DNA of 64,000 nucleotides. Source: Dictyostelium discoideum (Eukaryota). The stretch is from assembly GCA_000004695.1 (NCBI GenBank), contig CM000153.2, positions 704,001 to 768,000 of the forward strand. The letters run 5' to 3'. The stretch's first letter is position 1; the number at the start of each line of letters is the position of its first letter. Positions 8,043 to 33,534 of this stretch are shown piece by piece. The notes below the pieces were generated by a model. The model did no database searches, was not told where the DNA came from, and saw nothing but the letters and a program-made list of their open reading frames with translations. A program made the translations under genes and the position numbers.

Positions 8043-9657
8043 TTATTTTTTATTATTTATCTTTTTATGATGATTTTGATTAATTTCAAATAAGAAAGGA
8101 TTTTCAGATAAAAAGTTCTCTTCATATAATTTACAATTTGAATAAGAGTTACCAGTTACATTTACAAAACCATAAGTATCACAACAAGTATTGTATTGTT
8201 CTTTGGCTTGTGGTAAATGAGAGGAAGGAGTGATTTCAGTTGAACCATCATCAAAACGAAGATAAGTTGAGATAGAGAATGGATTAGCTGTGATTTCTAA
8301 AACACGAGCACCATGTTTCCAACCAGTTGGGGGACCATAACCACCATAACCCGATTTTCTACCATAACCTAATTGAACACCATTGTATTCACCAATGAAA
8401 TCATTGTCGTGGTCATGACCACAATGCATTGAAATGATGTCACCCATCTCTTTGAAAGCTGCGAATAAACCAGTGTTTACAGAGAAACAGCAAACACCAG
8501 TATCGTATAAACTACCATTTACAGGATAAAAATTCCACATATCCATGTACTCTGGAATTGGGATGTGCATGAAAGCAATTGCAGGTACTACACGACCATA
8601 CTTTTCACGTAGTCCCATTGAGACTGTACGATACCATTCGATTTGGTCTGGGTAAACACAACCCCAGCCTTCGACACCTTGGCAATTATCATCACCACTA
8701 TCGAAAAAGTAAAGTATGGTTGCAACCTCTCCACTTGAAGGATCAGTAATTGGTAAATAGTAGTTGGTTGCACCTCTAATATCTGATGGACCTCTTTGAG
8801 TTAAACTTAAATTAAAAGTATTATCCAACTCTACGATTTGAACACGATCTAAATCAGCTTCATCATCATGATTACCCAATGTAAATGCCCAACGTATATT
8901 ATGTTTAATCATTGGTTCAACCAAATGAATCCATTTTTCAATGAACCAACCCTCTGTACCATTCCATGCATATCCACTAACTGAATCACCTGTCATTACA
9001 ACTAAATCACCATCTGGTTCTGCTGTTAATACTCCATTTTGAACTTGATTTGATAAATCATCTTTATAATCTGCTTCACCATAATGTAAATCTGTGAATT
9101 GAATTATTTTAAATTTACCATTTGAATTAAATTCTAAATCTCTAATAATTAAAATAATATTAAAAAAAAAAAAATAATAATAATAATAATATTAAAAAAA
9201 AAAAAATAAATAATAATAATAATATTAAAAAATAAAATAATAATTAATTATTTATTTATTTATTTATAATATATGTATTAAATTTTTATTTTTATTATTA
9301 TTTTTTTTTTTTTTTTTTTTTTTGTTTTTTAATTAAAAAATTTATTATAATTGAAAACAAGTTAATATCTGAATTTTATTTATTTTTATTTATATGTCTA
9401 TTTAATTATTAAATAAAAGTGTTATTTCTATTTATTATTATTGTTTTTTAATATTAATATTTTCACATTATAACAATCATCCAACAAATTATTTGTTTAT
9501 TTATAATAATGAGTTATGGTGATGATGATGATGTATTTATTTATTTATTTAAATTTATTTAAATTTATTTATTTAAATTTAAATTTATTTATTTATTTTT
9601 ATATTTATTTAATTTGTTTGATTGGTGGGATGTATTGCTGGTTTTTAAATTTTTTAA

Positions 9658-14383: not shown

Positions 14384-15458
14384 TTTTATTTTATTTTTTT
14401 TTTTTTTTATTTGGGTTGCCGATTTATAATAAAAGTGGGCGAAAAAATGGTAAATTACCGTTGCAATTTTACATATTATAAAATACAAAAAAAAAAAAAA
14501 ATGTAATTCAGTATTATTTTTACTATTATTAATTACAAAATTAATAAAATATGTAATTCAATATTATTATTAATTATTATTATATTTAATAATAAAATAT
14601 AAAAAAATGTAAAAAATTCATTTGAAAAAAAAAAAAAATAAATCGGAAAAAGAGAAAAAGATATAAAGGTGAAAATTATTTTTTGGGAGAGTGATTTTTA
14701 AAATATCTTTTTTTTTTTTTTTTTCGTTTTTTTTTTTTTTGTCGTTTTTTTTTTTTTTTTCTTAAAAATAAAATCGAATTTCAAAAAAAAAAAGTGGTGA
14801 ACATGAAAAAAATTGTAAATACTTTTTTTTTTTTTTTTAAACAAATTATTATTGTTTTTTTTTTTTTGTTAACAAGTTATTATTTATTTTTTTTTTTTTT
14901 TGATGGTTGTGATGATGATTAAAATTATAAACTTTTTAGAAATTATAAAACAATTATATATTTAAAAAAACAAACATACACAAAAATGATTGTTTATTGG
15001 AGAGGAGGAGTTTTTATTTTTTATAGTAGTATATATATATTAATATAAATATAATAAAATATAAATATGAATATATATATATATAAATATAACAATATAT
15101 TGTTGGTTTTTTAAATACTTTTTTTGGTTTTTTTTTGTTTTATTTGGGTTTTTAGGTAAATTTAAATTAATGGTTTTTATTTTTTTGTTTTTTTAAAAAT
15201 GATTAATCTTTGGATTTTTATAATTGCAAATGGTTATCAATATAAACCAATATATATAAATGTATATAAATGTATATAATATAATTATCAAAGAATAAAA
15301 GGTGTTCTTTAAGCGACCGATAGTAAATAAAGTGATTATGTTACTCTTATTTTAATGGGGCAAACAGTGTGTGTGAGTGTGAGTGTGAGTGTACATATTA
15401 GATTAATTTATGAAAAAAATTATTTCCATAACCTTTTCATTATTATTTTATATATATT

Positions 15459-18642: not shown

Positions 18643-20417
18643 TAAAAAAACAATAGATTATTAAAAAAAAAAATTTTAATATATTTAAATTAAGAATTGA
18701 TATTATTAATAATAAAAAAAAACTGATTGGGTACAATTTTATTTTTTAGAATTGATCCATAAAAAATAAAATTAAATCACGTGGTTTTAGATTTATATAA
18801 AACTAAAATAATAATTTCCACGTGATTTAGAAAAATAAAAATAAAAAAAATAAAATTTGGCCTTAAAAATAAAAAATCGAATAAAAAATAATTTAAATAA
18901 AATTGGCATCGAATCATAAATCCAAACGATTTAAAAGTAAAATTCTGGCGCCATCAACTTTTTACAAATGGATCATGTGAAAAAAAAAAAAAAAAAAAAA
19001 TTTGTGGTTTTTATAAAAAATAATAACATCATTATTATTTATCTATTTTTATATAAAATAATTTATTTTATTTAAAAAAAAAAAAAAAAATAATAATATT
19101 AAGATCTTCAAATTTTTTTCATTTTCTAATTTTTATTTTTATTTTTATTTTCATTTTTATTTTTATTTTTTTTTTTTTTGGCTACCTCTCTCTTTGGTAT
19201 TATTTTATTTTATTTATTTTATTTTCTTTTTAAATTCAATTATTTTTAAAAATTCAAGTCAAATTAAATATAAAAATGGTTAAAAAAAACAATTATTTTT
19301 TTTTTATTGGGTAAAAAAAAAAAAAAAAATTAAAGATTATTAATTGGTTTGTACAAGTTTTTAGTTTTTTTAATTTTGGGAAGATTTTACAATTTTATTG
19401 TAAGTAATGAGTTTATAGAATTTATAAAAAAAACTTCACAATTCATAACATTAAAAAATAATTAACTTTGTAAAAAAAAAAAAAAAAAAAAAAAAACATA
19501 GAATTATAAAAATAATAATTTGTAATAATATATCCTGAAAATTAAAAAAATTTACCCAAATGGGTATAATTTGATGTGATTAATTGATGGCTCAGGAAAA
19601 TAATTGATATTAAAGTGGAAATAAAAAAAATTGAATTTGTAGATTTTGTTTTTTTTTTTTTTTTTTAGTTTTAATTGGTTGGATTGATAATATTTTTCAA
19701 ATAAAATATTATAATCTATATAAAGAAGTTATAAGGGGTGTCCAAAACACAGCATTTTTTTATTATTTCTATTATTAAAATATTTTAAGATAAAAATATT
19801 TTTATCTTTTTTTTTTTTTTTTTTAAACATTTTCAAAAAAAAAAAATAATAAATTTTTTAGATTATAATAATAGAAATAAAAAAACAGTAAAAATTAGGA
19901 ACATTATAATAAATGATTGTTTTTATTTTATTGTTTTTAGTTTGATAAATGAGCGGTTATTGCTTATCTTTCTTTGATAAAAATAAAATTAATAATATTA
20001 AAATATTGGTTACCTGATATCTGTATTATATATAGAAAAAAAATAATAAAAAAATTTAATAAATAAATTAATTAATTTAGATTTTTTTTTTTTTTAACAA
20101 TTTCAAAATCCAGATTAACTAATCGGCATAAACACACAAACACATTTCTAAAATTACATCAACATCAAAAAAAAAAAATTAAATAAAAAAAAAATAAAAA
20201 AAAAATTGGTGTGCAAGTGAAAGGTTATGGAAATAAGTAAGATAAAAAGGTTTTTTTGTTTAAAAAAAAAAAAATATTAAAGATTTATTCTTTTGTTTTT
20301 TTTTTTTTTTTATTTAATTTTTTTTTTTTTTTTGGAAAATATGTAATGTATACATATTGGTTTTATTTGAATATTAATCATAATAGTTTATAAATTTTTG
20401 AAATTTTTTTTATAAAA

Positions 20418-28052: not shown

Positions 28053-28890
28053 ATATTTATTTTAAATTATAGTTTTTGTTTTCTTTACAAAAAAATAATA
28101 AAAAATAAAATAAAATAAAAAAAGTGTTATAAATTTTTTATAGCTTGGAATTATCTTAATTTTTGCTTTACCTAAACTTTATTTTTTCTGATATCTTTAT
28201 CTTTACTTTTTTTGACTGCTATTTTTTTTTTTTAAAAAAAAAAAAAAAACATAAAATAAACAAATTATATTACTATTATTATAATATATTATTATTATTA
28301 TTATATAATGCAAATAATTTATTTTGCACGCAAATTGATGCATTCTTTTATATAAACTTATTTCAGTACACTCTAAATTGCTTTTTGATTTTTCTTTATT
28401 TTACTATTTTTGATTTATTATTAATACTTTAAAAATTTAAATTAATTACCGGATTTGTAGTTTTAATTTCTTCTTAATTCTCATTTAGATTAAATCCTGT
28501 ATTTCGATTTTTTTTCTAATACAATTATTATTTAAATTATTTATTAAATTGGTTGAATTATTTTCATCCGGTAATTATTAAATTTTCTTGTTGCAGTTTT
28601 TACCTAACCTGTGTTTGATTATATGCACGATATCCAATACATAGATTGTTTGTACCAAATCTACCAATTGTTTAATTAATATAGTGATTTCATAATATTA
28701 TAAATTTTTTTTTTTTTTTATTATCAAAAACTATTTATTAAAAAAAAATAACTAGTTATTTGATTGTTTAAAAATTAAATAAAAATTTACTTTGAAGTTT
28801 GCTCCAAATATTTTTTTTTTTTTTTAATAAATAAACTATTATTATTTTTAATTAAAATCTATAGATTACTTTTACTTTTTATTGAAATAC

Positions 28891-29103
28891 CACTATTACT
28901 ATTATTACTATACTATTTACTATTACTATTTATTACTATTACTATTACTATTAATTATTACTATTACTATTACTATTACTATTACTATTACTATTACTAT
29001 TACTATTACTATTACTATTACTATTACTATTACTGTTACTATTACTATTACTATTACTGTTACTATTACTATTACTATTACTATTACTATTACTATTACT
29101 ATT
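28891..29103. repeat. (TATTAC)n hexanucleotide microsatellite of about 35 units, with occasional TGTTAC variants.
   Basis: Seen directly; it generates the artefactual ORFs 28882-29145(+) and 28926-29111(-). Confidence 0.9.
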
Positions 29104-30815
29104 CTTTCCAATTGGTGTTATCATCTGAAGTTAAATTTCTATTGAATCCATAACCTATCTCTAATTTAGTAACTGATTCAAGTTTTAACATTTAAAATAG
29201 AGTGTGTAAAGTTAAATAATCTGTTGTTGATGTTGTTGCTGTTGTTCCTGTTTTTGTAGTAGTTGTTGCTATTGTGGTGTTGTTGCTGTTGTGGTGGTGT
29301 TGTTGTGGTGCTTTTGTCGCTTTTGTTGTGAAACATGATTAATAATTCATCTAAAGTTAGAGAGAATGGTGAATCTTATGATGTGTGTTTTTAAAACATA
29401 TAAAAAAATCAAAAAAACAAATGATTACATTCATTTTTTTTATTTTTTATATCATTTTGTTTGTGTATTTTTGAGTGCTCTCCTATCTACACTAAATTAA
29501 TATTAAAATAAAAAGAGACCTCGTAGTCAATTTGACTGTTAAAATACGATTTTTCAGAGAATGGATCAACTTTATTTTCGTCATTTATGTCGGTGACTAT
29601 GGTTAGGAGGCAAAGAACTCACCTGGATCCCTCTGATAGTCGCCAACCTAGGAGACTCAAGTTGCGATATTCATTTCATCATAAATATAACAATTAAAAA
29701 TATAATTTCAACTTTTGTTCGTTCGGTTTTATTATATTTTTTTTTTTATGGGACATTTGCAAAAAATAGTTATTTTTTTTTTAAAAATTTTTAGTTTAAA
29801 ATTAAAATTTATTTTCCAAAAATTTCATTTTATTAATCAGAATTTAAATCTCATTTTCCAACAACACAATAATTTTTTCAAAGTGTGGAAAAAACATAAT
29901 TCCAACACACCCAGATTTTTTTTAAAAAAATAATAAAAAAAAAAAAAAATTAAAAAAAAAATAATAATAAAAAAGATAAACATTAACTTTTTTGTAATTT
30001 CATTTTGTGAAGAGATGAATCATGACCCTACAACTGATAAACAGTATCATCATGCAATGTTACAAATATTTCAAATGAAAAAAAAATAAAACAAAATTCA
30101 CTTTTTTTTTTTTCAATAATTTTCATTTTTTTTTTTTTTTCGTTTTTTTGATATTTCAAGATATTTTCAAAATATGATTTTGATTTTTTTTTTTGATTTT
30201 TTTTTTTTTTTTTTTTTAAATAATAAAATAAATAACCATTATTATTTATTTATTTTAATTTTTAATTAATTTTAGATTCGTTGCTTTTAATAGGTCTGAT
30301 ATAAAATCATAATAAATCTTATGATCTTTTTTTAAATTTTTTTCATTTTTTATTTCATTTTTTTTTTTATCTCAAAAAAATATCTCATAATAAAATTAAT
30401 TCAAATTCTAAAAATAATATATTTGTTTCCGTACTTTTAATTTTTTTTTTTTTTTTAAAAAAAAAGTTTTAGTTTGTTTCAAAAAAGTTAAGTTATTTTT
30501 TAGAAAGTTTATACTTGAAAAAATATATCTTATCTATAATTTTATTAGATTCCCTTTTATTAATTTATTTATTTATTTATTTTTTTTATTTTTTTTTTTT
30601 GCCCCCATCATGATTGTTTAATTTGACAATAATTTTTTTTTAATAATGAACCTATTAAATGTGAGTGGGTTTTTATTTTAAACTGATTTTGTAAAACATT
30701 AAAATAAAATTAAAAAAACTAAAAAAAAAAAAAAAAAAAAAACTATAAAAAGAAATTTTTTTTTTTTTTAAAACCAGAATTCTCTCTCTTCTTACTAATT
30801 AATTAAATTTCAAAA

Positions 30816-30836
30816 ATGTTATTCAGTAAGTAATTT

Positions 30837-30935
<99 letters not shown>

Positions 30936-30976
30936 TAATATTTAAAATAGTAAAGGGTATTAATAAAAGTATAATA

Positions 30977-31016
<40 letters not shown>

Positions 31017-31193
31017 AAAATTATTTTAGAATCATTACAATCAATCACAAGTGTAAACTCAATTCAAAAGAATCAAATTTCTTCAATTTCATTAGGAAGC
31101 TCACAATCAAATAATAATGCAGCACTCTTAGATGCAGCAGCATTTGTTGCAATTCCAGGTTTATTAACTGCTGCTGCTGTTGCTCATATTTAA
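30816..31193 (+). CDS. Small (57 aa) Ser-rich protein, possibly hssA/2C/7E-like. Two exons: 30816-30825 and 31030-31193.
   Basis: ATGTTATTCA|gtaagt donor. An intron of (AAT)n plus poly-A ends at acceptor ttattttag|. Exon 2 reads KSLQSITSVNSIQKNQISSISLGSSQSNNNAALLDAAAFVAIPGLLTAAAVAHI*. Phase 1 is consistent. Confidence 0.35.
30841..30930. repeat. (AAT)30 microsatellite, intronic or intergenic.
   Basis: Seen directly. Confidence 0.9.
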
Positions 31194-31334
31194 ATTTTTA
31201 AAGATTTAATTATGAATTGTTTATTATAATTCATAAATTAATTATTAAAAACACACACAAACAAAATTATATGAATATTAAATTGTAAAATTAATAAATA
31301 AATAATTATATTCATTCATTTTATAAAAAAAAGT

Positions 31335-31370
<36 letters not shown>

Positions 31371-31551
31371 ATTAAATCAATTTTTTATTTTTTATTTAAA
31401 TGATTGTTATAAAAGTTGTTATTGTTATTATTGCTTTATGATAATTTTAGTGCTATTGTTATAGCTCTTATATGAATGTCAATATCTATTGATCACGATT
31501 GTAAGTTTTTAATAGAAACTACCCACAAAAAAATACTACCACGATAAATTA

Positions 31552-31705
31552 ATGATGTTGATGTTGATGTTGATGTTGATGTTGATGTTGATGTTGATGT
31601 TGATGTTGATGTTGGTGTTGATGATGTTGATGTTAATGTTGTTGTTGATGTTGATGTTGATGTTGATGTTGATGTTGATGTTGATGTTGGTGTTGATGTT
31701 GATGG
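31552..31705. repeat. (ATGTTG)n hexanucleotide array of about 25 units.
   Basis: Seen directly; it sits immediately 5' of the palindromic element. Confidence 0.9.
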
Positions 31706-32040
31706 TTCATTTGCTCATACTAGGCCACTGCCCACCAGTTGGTGACAGACTGCCGTTTGCCAATAATAGGTAAGTGTCAGCTTAATGTTCGCAGACTGGG
31801 GTTTGCCCATGCTATACAAATGACCGCTAACTGGTGGCAGATGGTCATTTACTCATACTAGGCCATTGCCCGCTAGCAGCCAGAAGACGGCCAGTGGTCT
31901 AGTGTGAGTAAACTGAGGTCTGCCAGCAATTAACGACCACTTATATAGTATAAGCAAACGGAAGTCTGCTACCAGCTATAGGGCACTGACCTATTATTGG
32001 CAAACAGTAGTCTGTCGCCAACTGGTGGGCAGGGGCTTTG
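31706..32040. mobile_element. ~330-bp GC-rich quasi-palindromic element (MITE-like, thug-like), a non-coding hairpin repeat.
   Basis: The terminal arm ggccactgcccaccagttggtgacagactgccgtttgccaataatagg (31725-31772) is the near-perfect reverse complement of cctattattggcaaacagtagtctgtcgccaactggtgggcagggg (31989-32034). The interior also self-complements (gtttgcccatgctatacaaatgaccgctaactggtggcagatggtcatttactcatactaggccattgcc vs the revcomp of ...ggccagtggtctagtgtgagtaaactgaggtctgccagcaattaacgaccacttatatagtataagcaaac). There is no ORF. About 50% GC within 22% GC surroundings. Confidence 0.45.
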
Positions 32041-32711
32041 TATAAACAAATGAACCATCTGTTGAAATCTATTTAAAATTGAAATTTAAAATATGAAAAA
32101 AAAAAAAAAAAAAAAAATTAATGAAAATGGAATGAGATTATTCATTTTTGTTACCAGTTTATGATTATTTTTAAATGAATTTCAAAAAAAAAATAAACAA
32201 AATTTAATTTTAATTTATACAAAAAAGAACACAATAAAAAAAAATAAAAAAAATTAAAATTTTTAACTTAATCTTTAGAAAAACAATTTTTTTAATTTTT
32301 TTTTTTGTTATAATTTTTATTATTTATTTTATTTTATTTTTAACCATCAAAAAATATTACATAAAAATATTGTAACTATTTTTAGGAAAAATGGTGGTTT
32401 TTTTTTTTTTTTTTTATTGTGTGCTTTTTTGTTGCTGTGTTTACAAATTCATTTTAAATGAATAAAAAATTAAATCATAATATTTTGGTGGTTCCAATAA
32501 TAGATTTTTCTAATCAAAAAATAAAAAGAAAAAAAAAAAAATGAACTTTGAGATTGTTTTTTTCTTTTTTATTTTTTATTTTTTTTTCTTTTTTTTTAAT
32601 TTTTAATATTTTTTTTTTTAATATTATTAATAAATAAGGTAATTACAAAATGATCTATTTTTCAACTGATATCATTGGGGTTGAACGTAATTAAATTTAT
32701 AATAATATTTT

Positions 32712-32751
<40 letters not shown>

Positions 32752-33090
32752 TTTAATTTTAGAACCATTGTTTCATCTTAAAATTAAAAAAAATAAAATA
32801 AAATAAAATAATAATAATAATATTAATAATATTAAAAACAATCATAAAAATAATAATAAAAATAATCATAATTGGTGATAATGTTTTTTTTTTGGAAATA
32901 TTAAAAAAAAAAAAATAATAAATAAATAAATAAATTAATTTTCAAACTTCACATCTTTATATTTTTATTTTTTCCTCTAAATATTAATTATATATATATA
33001 TTTTTCCTGAAAAAATTTTACCTAAAAAATAGGATGTAAAACTTTGAAAGTAAATTATATTTTTTATTAATTAATTTCAAAATAAAAAGA

Positions 33091-33124
33091 ATGAGAACCC
33101 CAAATTATATAAATAATAATTATT

Positions 33125-33219
<95 letters not shown>

Positions 33220-33534
33220 CAAACAAATTTAAATGAAGAAAACAATGATCAATACGATATGATGAGAGAAAATTTGAAAATTAGAAATATTACAGTTATA
33301 TTAAAATTATTAATAACAATGAAAGCTGGTATCACAAGAAATTCATCTGATACAACTGGTATGACAATGACTCCATCTGATCAAGTTCCAACACCTGGAG
33401 TATCAAAGGATGATTTTAATACTTTAATAATACGCCATTTTCGTTTATACAATAATTATCCATCTCCATCACCAACTACTTCATTTAACTCAACAAATCC
33501 CCAAAACACACACCAAACGCGAAAAAGTAATTAG
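33091..33534 (+). CDS. Hypothetical low-complexity protein (147 aa, poly-Asn tract).
   Basis: An ORF with a long (AAT)n-encoded N tract followed by non-repetitive sequence (DQYDMMRENLKIRNITVILKLLITMKAGITRNSSDTTGMTMTPSDQVPTPGVSKDDF...). No domain recognised. Confidence 0.3.

Follow-up and report, generated by a model that had tools for sequence, protein, structure and literature searches.

The locus and its features

The stretch analysed here (the window) comprises 64,000 nt of chromosome 4 of Dictyostelium discoideum AX4, positions 704,001 to 768,000 of contig CM000153.2, and has a mean GC content of 21%. The subject of this study is a GC-rich imperfect palindrome of 359 nt, hereafter the element, which lies in intergenic DNA between the gene DDB_G0283465 (30816–31193, + strand) and an open reading frame (ORF) that would encode a 147-aa protein rich in poly-Asn (33091–33534, + strand). 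An earlier note on this DNA, made from its letters, had called attention to the palindrome. The palindrome does exist, with more structure and a greater age than that note could reveal.

Exact matches to AX4 proteins were obtained for two ORFs of the window, DDB_G0283457 and DDB_G0283473 (trehalase). Two spliced neighbours that were rebuilt, Arl8 and the 57-aa DDB_G0283465, also match AX4 proteins. The features discussed below are collected in Table 1.

Table 1. Features at and around the element, in coordinates of the window
Feature	Position	Strand	Remarks
DDB_G0283465	30816–31193	+	57 aa, 2 exons; orthology anchor
TATAAAAAAAAG followed by a T30 run	31322–31366	+	T-run in all orthologues; possible Pol II promoter for transcription through both hairpins, by inference only
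Hairpin A remnant (loop and 3′ arm)	31473–31551	+	AT-rich; intact in wild isolates and sister species
DUSE-like octamer ACCCACAA	31521–31528	+	Inside the hairpin A remnant
(TGATGT)25.8 microsatellite	31553–31704		TRF: period 6, 90% matches; abuts the element, not part of it
GC-rich imperfect palindrome (the element), GATGGTTCATTTG...CAAATGAACCATC	31701–32059		Repeat finding, folding, pairing count, GC
Left arm	31701–31872		46-nt tandem units U1 31708–31754, U2 31755–31800, U3 31801–31845, U4 31846–31888
Central 95-nt hairpin	31833–31927	+	Sole part conserved in all five lineages
5′ stem of central hairpin, CATTTACTCATACTAGGCCATTGCCCG	31846–31872	+	27/27 identical in both wild isolates, 24/27 in L005
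3′ stem of central hairpin, CGGCCAGTGGTCTAGTGTGAGTAAACT	31888–31914	+	27/27 and 26/27 identical in the isolates, 22/27 in L005
Right arm	31888–32059		Mirror units V4 31871–31913, V3 31914–31959, V2 31960–32005, V1 32006–32052, minus-strand reading
A22 run	32097–32118		Downstream of the element; kept in orthologues

An inverted duplication of a four-unit array

The element is made of two arms of 172 nt, 76% complementary, around a centre of 15 nt. When the arms are paired without gaps, 131 positions are Watson–Crick, 10 are G·U on the + strand, 13 are G·U on the − strand, and 18 are of other kinds. Between 31727–31771 and its partner only three positions depart from Watson–Crick pairing, in agreement with the near-perfect outer arms of 45 nt described previously. 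The GC fraction of the element is ~0.48–0.50, compared with 0.21 in the window and 0.08–0.15 in the flanks. The description of a long imperfect palindrome of about 50% GC within DNA of about 20% GC is thus borne out (359 nt, 48% versus 21%).

Folding of both strands had been proposed as a check. As RNA, either strand is predicted to form one long hairpin, with a minimum free energy (MFE) of −203 kcal/mol for the + strand and −204.5 kcal/mol for the − strand (about −204 kcal/mol each). The corresponding z scores are −16 and −20, and none of 100 shuffles equalled the native sequence.

No coding function is apparent, as the earlier note had also held. The ORFs at the element are TTG ORFs of 34–40 aa, plus a 73-aa (ML)n ORF that begins in the microsatellite. 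A six-frame translation of the element, used as one query, found no relative among 5.8 billion proteins, and the longest stop-free peptide (45 aa) gave a single chance match, to a bacterial repeat protein, among 1.84 billion representatives. No Rfam family matched anywhere in the window at the gathering threshold; around the element, the best match at E ≤ 1 was mir-1684 (23.7 bits versus a gathering score of 60, E = 0.12). A tRNA scan detected none, and no other copy of the element is found within the 64-kb window.

Autocorrelation revealed an internal periodicity in both arms, with peaks at lags of 46, 92 and 138 nt that stand above all shuffles. Cutting the arms at 46-nt steps yielded eight units (U1–U4, and V1–V4 as reverse complement) that align without gaps. 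Identity between mirror partners is 0.83, 0.78, 0.70 and 0.70 from U1–V1 to U4–V4, while different units generally show lower values, mostly 0.52–0.74. Each unit is nearest to its own mirror partner, which identifies the structure as a four-unit array duplicated in inverse orientation. The order of events read from the units is formation of a four-unit tandem array, then its inverted duplication, and then divergence of the arms by ~17–30%.

Orthologues of the element in the discoideum clade

Syntenic regions were obtained through 90%-identity protein clusters of Arl8, DDB_G0283465, DDB_G0283457 and trehalase, followed by retrieval of the contigs that encode cluster members. The assemblies of the relatives are genomes of bioRxiv 10.1101/2025.08.01.668227. 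Two proteins, a 412-aa Gcn5-like protein and the 147-aa protein, are encoded on a contig yet missing from the protein-cluster collection, so a single negative look-up does not prove absence. Use of the neighbouring 2013-aa protein as a homology query was dominated by low-complexity words, and returned paralogues or no match.

The element is present in all five discoideum-clade assemblies compared. Relevant observations are the following:

(i). In GCA_054883475.1, which is probably AX2, both the element and the microsatellite are the same as in AX4, with no differences.

(ii). The wild D. discoideum isolates L004 (GCA_054859385.1) and L008 (GCA_054859355.1) carry the element at the same site, with 86–87% identity. 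In each, precisely one unit is missing (V1, 46 nt), together with 8 nt from the left end.

(iii). The sister species L005 ('D. cf. discoideum', GCA_054859205.1) carries a full-length element with 75% identity.

(iv). In L011 (a second sister species, also 'cf. discoideum', GCA_054859235.1) a decayed central hairpin alone is recognisable. This locus has ~690 bp of extra DNA (14430–15100) between the hexamer seed and the element. The extra stretch contains the tail of a minus-strand Q-rich ORF, annotated as fused to the neighbouring 2056-aa gene, and has no homologue in the other loci.

(v). The element and DDB_G0283465 are both absent from D. firmibasis (L006), D. citrinum (two assemblies, L009 and L010) and D. 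dimigraforme (L013).

The whole block formed by DDB_G0283465, the hairpins and the 147-aa poly-Asn ORF (30816–33534) is confined to the discoideum clade when compared with those four outgroup assemblies. In D. firmibasis, Arl8 adjoins the large membrane-protein gene; in D. citrinum, the large gene is also gone from between Arl8 and trehalase. Since the outgroups lack the entire gene block, they provide no clean empty site for the element.

The presence of orthologues at the same site in five lineages indicates that the palindrome is neither fortuitous nor a recent insertion. As judged from this distribution, the element is older than the split of the discoideum clade.

Unequal conservation along the element

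Conservation is concentrated in the central hairpin. On the + strand this hairpin has a predicted free energy of −53.8 kcal/mol, with ~24 consecutive pairs that include three G·U, compared with −41.1 kcal/mol on the − strand. In D. discoideum sensu stricto the + strand version is 10–13 kcal/mol more stable than the − strand version because of these three G·U pairs.

In the two wild isolates the central stems differ from AX4 at 0/54 and 1/54 positions, compared with ~14–15% in the rest of the element (binomial P = 2e-4 and 2e-3; the two values are not independent, since the isolates are closely related). In L005 the stems differ at 8/54 positions, compared with 31% in the rest of the element (binomial P = 5e-3). 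The central stems are also the only part that can still be aligned in L011.

A four-way alignment provided a reference for these rates. The 3′ UTR and the AT-rich flanks have 85–95% identity to the wild isolates and 78–89% to L005, while the outer units have 83–91% and 63–74%, respectively. The outer units thus change more quickly than the flanks, which leaves the centre as the one part that looks constrained. Within the element, GC-to-AT changes exceed AT-to-GC changes by ~2:1. Self-complementarity is 75% over 361 nt in AX4 and 62–68% in the other lineages, and MFE per nucleotide is −0.59 in AX4 and −0.41, −0.34 and −0.27 in the orthologues.

Double changes that keep a pair are in excess. On the AX4 palindrome, over the four full-length orthologues, we counted nine such pairs, versus 4.6 ± 1.5 in column shuffles (1/500) and 0–3 when the partners were slid. 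U1/V1 holds several of these double changes in a cluster; there the two AX4 arms have in common the derived string ACCAGTTGG, for which gene conversion between the arms is the simplest explanation.

This last observation has a bearing on a neutral explanation. A local palindrome without function might have arisen by template-switch inverted duplication of a small tandem array and been kept partly palindromic by gene conversion between its halves, the quiet centre being a sampling effect or a mutation cold spot. Such a history fits the derived string common to U1 and V1, the variable self-complementarity, the lack of strand bias among G·U mismatches and the dispensability of an outer unit in natural isolates. 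However, gene conversion does not make lineages diverge less, yet the stems at the centre show 0–1/54 differences against ~14% elsewhere; nor does the neutral view fit the fact that these stems alone are recognisable in the most distant lineage, or the retention of ~48% GC in a genome of ~21% GC. On balance we consider a purely neutral palindrome unlikely.

The description that we regard as secure is that of an inverted duplication of a 4 × 46-bp array, restricted to the clade and subject to concerted evolution, in which the outer units are dispensable and the core is constrained.

The adjacent microsatellite, hairpin A and the DUSE-like motif

A hexamer array of about 25 copies had been described directly before the element, and TRF detects 25.8 copies at 31553–31704. 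The array is a recent expansion: ~21–26 units are found in D. discoideum, and 2–3 in L005. Its counterparts lie at 8903–9026 in L004, ~19096–19228 in L008, ~8820–8836 in L005 and ~14436–14462 in L011. In L011 the homologous hexamers form the last codons (..QCQYQLQPQS*) of the minus-strand Q-rich ORF mentioned above. A reading of the array as a coding exon was considered and rejected: (CAACAT)n would give (QH)n on the minus strand, but in AX4 the array has no ORF context, and the Q-rich ORF tail exists in L011 only.

Upstream of the microsatellite lies the remnant of a second, AT-rich hairpin, which we call hairpin A. In its complete form it has 52-nt arms that are 79–83% complementary, and RNAalifold predicts 41 pairs, of which nine show compensatory double changes across four sequences. 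The 5′ arm is deleted in AX4 and AX2. Hairpin A is found at 18860–18965 in L008, 8596–8701 in L005, ~14184–14350 in L011 and, in duplicated form, ~8640–8770 in L004. Its size is that of a microRNA precursor (pre-miRNA), and it gives sub-threshold Rfam matches to many unrelated AT-rich microRNA (miRNA) families; we read these matches as reflecting a generic hairpin shape.

The earlier note had pointed out a DUSE-like motif upstream of the element, a motif that marks promoters of non-coding RNAs (ncRNAs) in Dictyostelium. The octamer is indeed there, on the + strand, but a promoter role is not sustained. The string WCCCAYAA occurs eight times in the window versus 8.6 expected, a chance frequency that deprives it of statistical weight. 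Functional DUSEs lie ~60 nt upstream of the transcription start site and, in Group 4 species, contain a run of three Cs (PMC7919456). At this locus, the octamer is separated from the element by 172 nt, and the point 60 nt downstream of it falls within the microsatellite; the earlier note had itself remarked that a distance of ~170 rather than ~60 bp does not suit a simple ncRNA gene. Three of five orthologues carry mutations in the CCC core (ACCGACAA in L008 and L005, ACAGACAA in L004), and the octamer is a leftover from the hairpin A 3′ arm.

One might still imagine a DUSE-driven small ncRNA gene, of Class I or a similar type, in which the hairpin would be the RNA. Besides the octamer itself, L011 offers a point in its favour, as it retains ACCCACAA followed ~50 nt later by AAATGTA, one mismatch away from the TGTG box (PMC7919456). 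However, this idea has to face all the observations just listed as well as the lack of an Rfam match, and an element of 359 nt is far above the size of Class I RNAs (~60 nt; PMC7919456). We regard such a gene as highly improbable.

Other repeats are found in the vicinity. The intron of DDB_G0283465 (30838–30930) is nearly all an (AAT)~30 array, and the gene is accompanied by homopolymer runs, an A30-like run at 30975–31015 and the T30 run at 31337–31366. A second long hexamer microsatellite (28882–29145) lies ~2.5 kb upstream of the element and has several open frames (ITITIT / NSNSNS / VIVIVI).

Relationship with thug, MITEs and foldback elements

The element had been likened to the small palindromic, non-autonomous thug elements, as a thug-like miniature inverted-repeat transposable element (MITE). 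Thug elements make up ~0.1% of the genome (PMC5633606). Thug-S has gene models (PMC12405889, 'thugS element'; PMC3386910) and is therefore more than a short non-coding palindrome; it also has an intron (PMC4894637), from which a multicopy miRNA derives (PMC4894637, PMC6161686). This miRNA, miRNA_can_D3, maps to six loci on chromosomes 2, 3 and 5 and to none on chromosome 4 (table S4 of PMC4894637). In that table it is the sole multicopy miRNA of its kind besides the telomere-proximal D4, which is treated apart in the text.

The consensus of Rfam family RF03716 (mir-7131) contains UAUGGCUGCUGAAAUUAAU, which is miRNA_can_D3, and thus provides a useful marker of thug-S copies. The 5p and 3p sequences of miRNA_can_D3, the only thug-S sequences compared, gave no match in the window at ≤3 mismatches and none in the fetched loci at ≤4, and RF03716 did not match the window. 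A possible mir-7131 match of hairpin A in L011 (14216–14317; 23.8 bits versus a gathering score of 74) was considered as a link to thug-S and dropped: both strands score equally, so do unrelated plant and animal miRNA families, and L008 shows no such match. The element resembles thug-S in that both are hairpin-associated Dictyostelium repeats, with an AT-rich hairpin beside a GC-rich segment in other isolates. The differences are the absence of mir-7131/miRNA_can_D3 from the window, the six mapped copies of thug-S on other chromosomes, and the lack of gene models in the element.

A profile of the 46-nt unit, run over the 64-kb window and 256 kb of related loci, detected units at the orthologous element only. 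Exact patterns from the outer arm and the conserved core gave no hits in four scans of JGI metagenome and GTDB contigs, which are essentially prokaryotic collections with hardly any amoeba DNA. A search for a flanking target-site duplication (TSD), which the earlier note had suggested, yielded a 4-bp candidate in AX4 (TGTT|...|TGTT). L004, L008 and L005 have TATT|...|TGTT, and the left copy lies in the microsatellite. Lacking a marker match, further units in the DNA searched and a TSD outside AX4, the element is not filed under thug-S, and the proposal of a thug-like MITE has no positive support. The labels thug and DUSE are both unsupported.

A broader transposon hypothesis deserves separate consideration. 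The element might be the relic of a non-autonomous foldback or MITE-like transposon (either thug-T-like or from an undescribed family) that inserted once before the clade diverged, no longer moves and is decaying; the 46-bp subrepeats would then be former transposase-binding sites. Terminal inverted repeats made of tandem subrepeats are a trait of foldback elements, and the whole element has this form: nearly all of it consists of two inverted arms with 4 × 46-bp subrepeats each and a tiny centre (172-nt arms, 76% complementary). Like foldback (FB-type) elements and subrepeated MITEs, it is non-coding and gains or loses whole units between strains. The transposon hypothesis also agrees with a GC content foreign to the surrounding DNA, the possible TGTT duplication in AX4, the fast outer units with their 2:1 excess of GC-to-AT changes and whole-unit deletions, and the absence of the element from three outgroup species.

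Unlike such transposons, however, the element has been found at one locus so far, with no second copy or stray unit in the 64-kb window or the 256 kb of related loci, and it lacks a reproducible TSD, a presence/absence polymorphism within the clade and a partner transposase. Translated searches (~5.8 and 1.8 billion proteins) and the exact-pattern scans of amoeba-poor collections gave no relative; the thug-S marker is absent; no empty site is seen, the outgroups being devoid of the whole gene block; and the selective conservation of the central stem is not explained by simple decay. We consider a transposon relic somewhat unlikely, and we note that the centre could later have been exapted as an RNA hairpin, so that it does not exclude the reading discussed below.

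The element as a candidate hairpin-RNA locus

The explanation that we favour, with a probability of roughly 0.4, is that the element is a hairpin-RNA locus, similar to those of miRNAs or of hairpin RNAs (hpRNAs), with a foldback architecture. We infer transcription, the strand transcribed, small-RNA processing and the existence of any target; the proposed scheme would be as follows. A four-unit, 46-bp GC-rich array underwent inverted duplication (U1–U4 / V4–V1) at a single locus in the ancestor of the discoideum clade. A Pol II transcript would begin behind the conserved TATA/oligo-T stretch (~31370, + strand) and read through hairpin A (lost in AX4), the hexamer repeat and then the palindrome. 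The DrnB/RbdB microprocessor (Dicer-like) would cut the central ~90-nt hairpin, with its conserved stem of ~21–27 bp, to 21-nt RNAs. Candidate 5p and 3p small RNAs would map to ~31845–31865 and ~31896–31916, respectively. The outer units would serve as a dispensable lower stem, subject to drift, loss of whole units and arm-to-arm gene conversion.

Several observations are consistent with this scheme. As expected for a miRNA gene, the element contains an imperfect hairpin whose ~21-bp duplex is conserved in relatives. In D. discoideum, transcription of pri-miRNAs begins downstream of T-rich runs (PMC6161686), and long hairpins are known as sources of small RNAs in this organism (PMC2175303). 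The earlier note had mentioned a new hairpin-RNA locus as a fallback, which agrees with an orthologous single locus and a conserved central hairpin. The excess of pair-keeping double changes and, in D. discoideum sensu stricto, the greater stability of the central hairpin on the + strand also count in its favour. Hairpin A lies in the same stretch of intergenic DNA and has compensatory changes in 9/41 pairs, which points to a non-coding transcription unit rich in hairpins.

Comparison with known systems is also informative. Like the miRNA loci of D. discoideum (mir-1176, mir-1177, mir-7097 and others; PMC6161686, PMC11014262), the element is intergenic, has a GC content above its surroundings and lies downstream of a T-rich run. 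The central hairpin (~95 nt, −0.57 kcal/mol/nt) is similar in size and energy to listed D. discoideum pri-miRNA hairpins (101–162 nt, −0.43 to −0.70 kcal/mol/nt). Unlike those loci, it forms part of a 359-nt repeat palindrome, falls outside the published candidate lists and has no Rfam match above threshold. Drosophila hpRNA loci and young plant MIR genes, which are born by inverted duplication, share with the element the form of a long, imperfect, lineage-restricted, intergenic inverted repeat with fast turnover in which a short duplex segment alone is conserved. The element differs in that its arms resemble no protein-coding gene, so that no trace of a 'founder target gene' is seen.

A number of findings weigh against the hairpin-RNA explanation:

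(i). A k-mer look-up did not find the stems among the miRNA candidates and hairpins listed by PMC11014262 and PMC6161686 (supplements) and by PMC4894637 (Table 2). Core k-mers retrieved unrelated papers only in a full-text literature search. Conversely, the known D. discoideum miRNAs (PMC4894637) and mir-1177 are absent from the window and the fetched loci at ≤4 mismatches.

(ii). Complementary 21-mer target sites of the central stem are not found in the 64-kb window.

(iii). The pairing evidence admits another explanation, as gene conversion between arms at the DNA level would likewise yield double changes. Furthermore, 28% of the AX4 pairs are broken in L005, and the central hairpin is kept by invariance rather than by covariation (one compensatory pair, with a positive covariation term).

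(iv). Strand preference is not uniform: in L005 it is the − strand that has the better fold, the L011 hairpin folds weakly, and G·U-compatible mismatches over the whole palindrome show no strand bias (10 versus 13).

An extended version of the hairpin-RNA explanation can be envisaged, in which hairpin A and the palindrome (B) would be parts of one clade-specific non-coding gene, a young miRNA/hpRNA locus derived from the inverted 46-bp array. AX4 and AX2 would have lost A and homogenised and extended B, and the small-RNA repertoire of the reference strain would differ from that of wild isolates. We hold this version to be fairly unlikely.

Significance

Should the element prove to be no more than a transposon relic or neutral palindrome, its interest is limited to local annotation. 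A young, clade-specific hairpin-RNA gene is the most interesting of the readings that survive, and the one that we favour. Whether transcribed or not, the element offers a clear example, on a small scale, of how the arms of a palindrome evolve in concert within an extremely AT-rich genome. Amoebozoa have very few known miRNA or hairpin-RNA genes, and the origin of such genes is an open question (PMC11014262). If the element is transcribed and diced, the locus would record stages in the birth and decay of a hairpin gene across close genomes: a tandem array, its inverted duplication, a conserved core duplex, a drifting lower stem, the loss of a unit in wild isolates and the loss of a neighbouring hairpin in laboratory strains.

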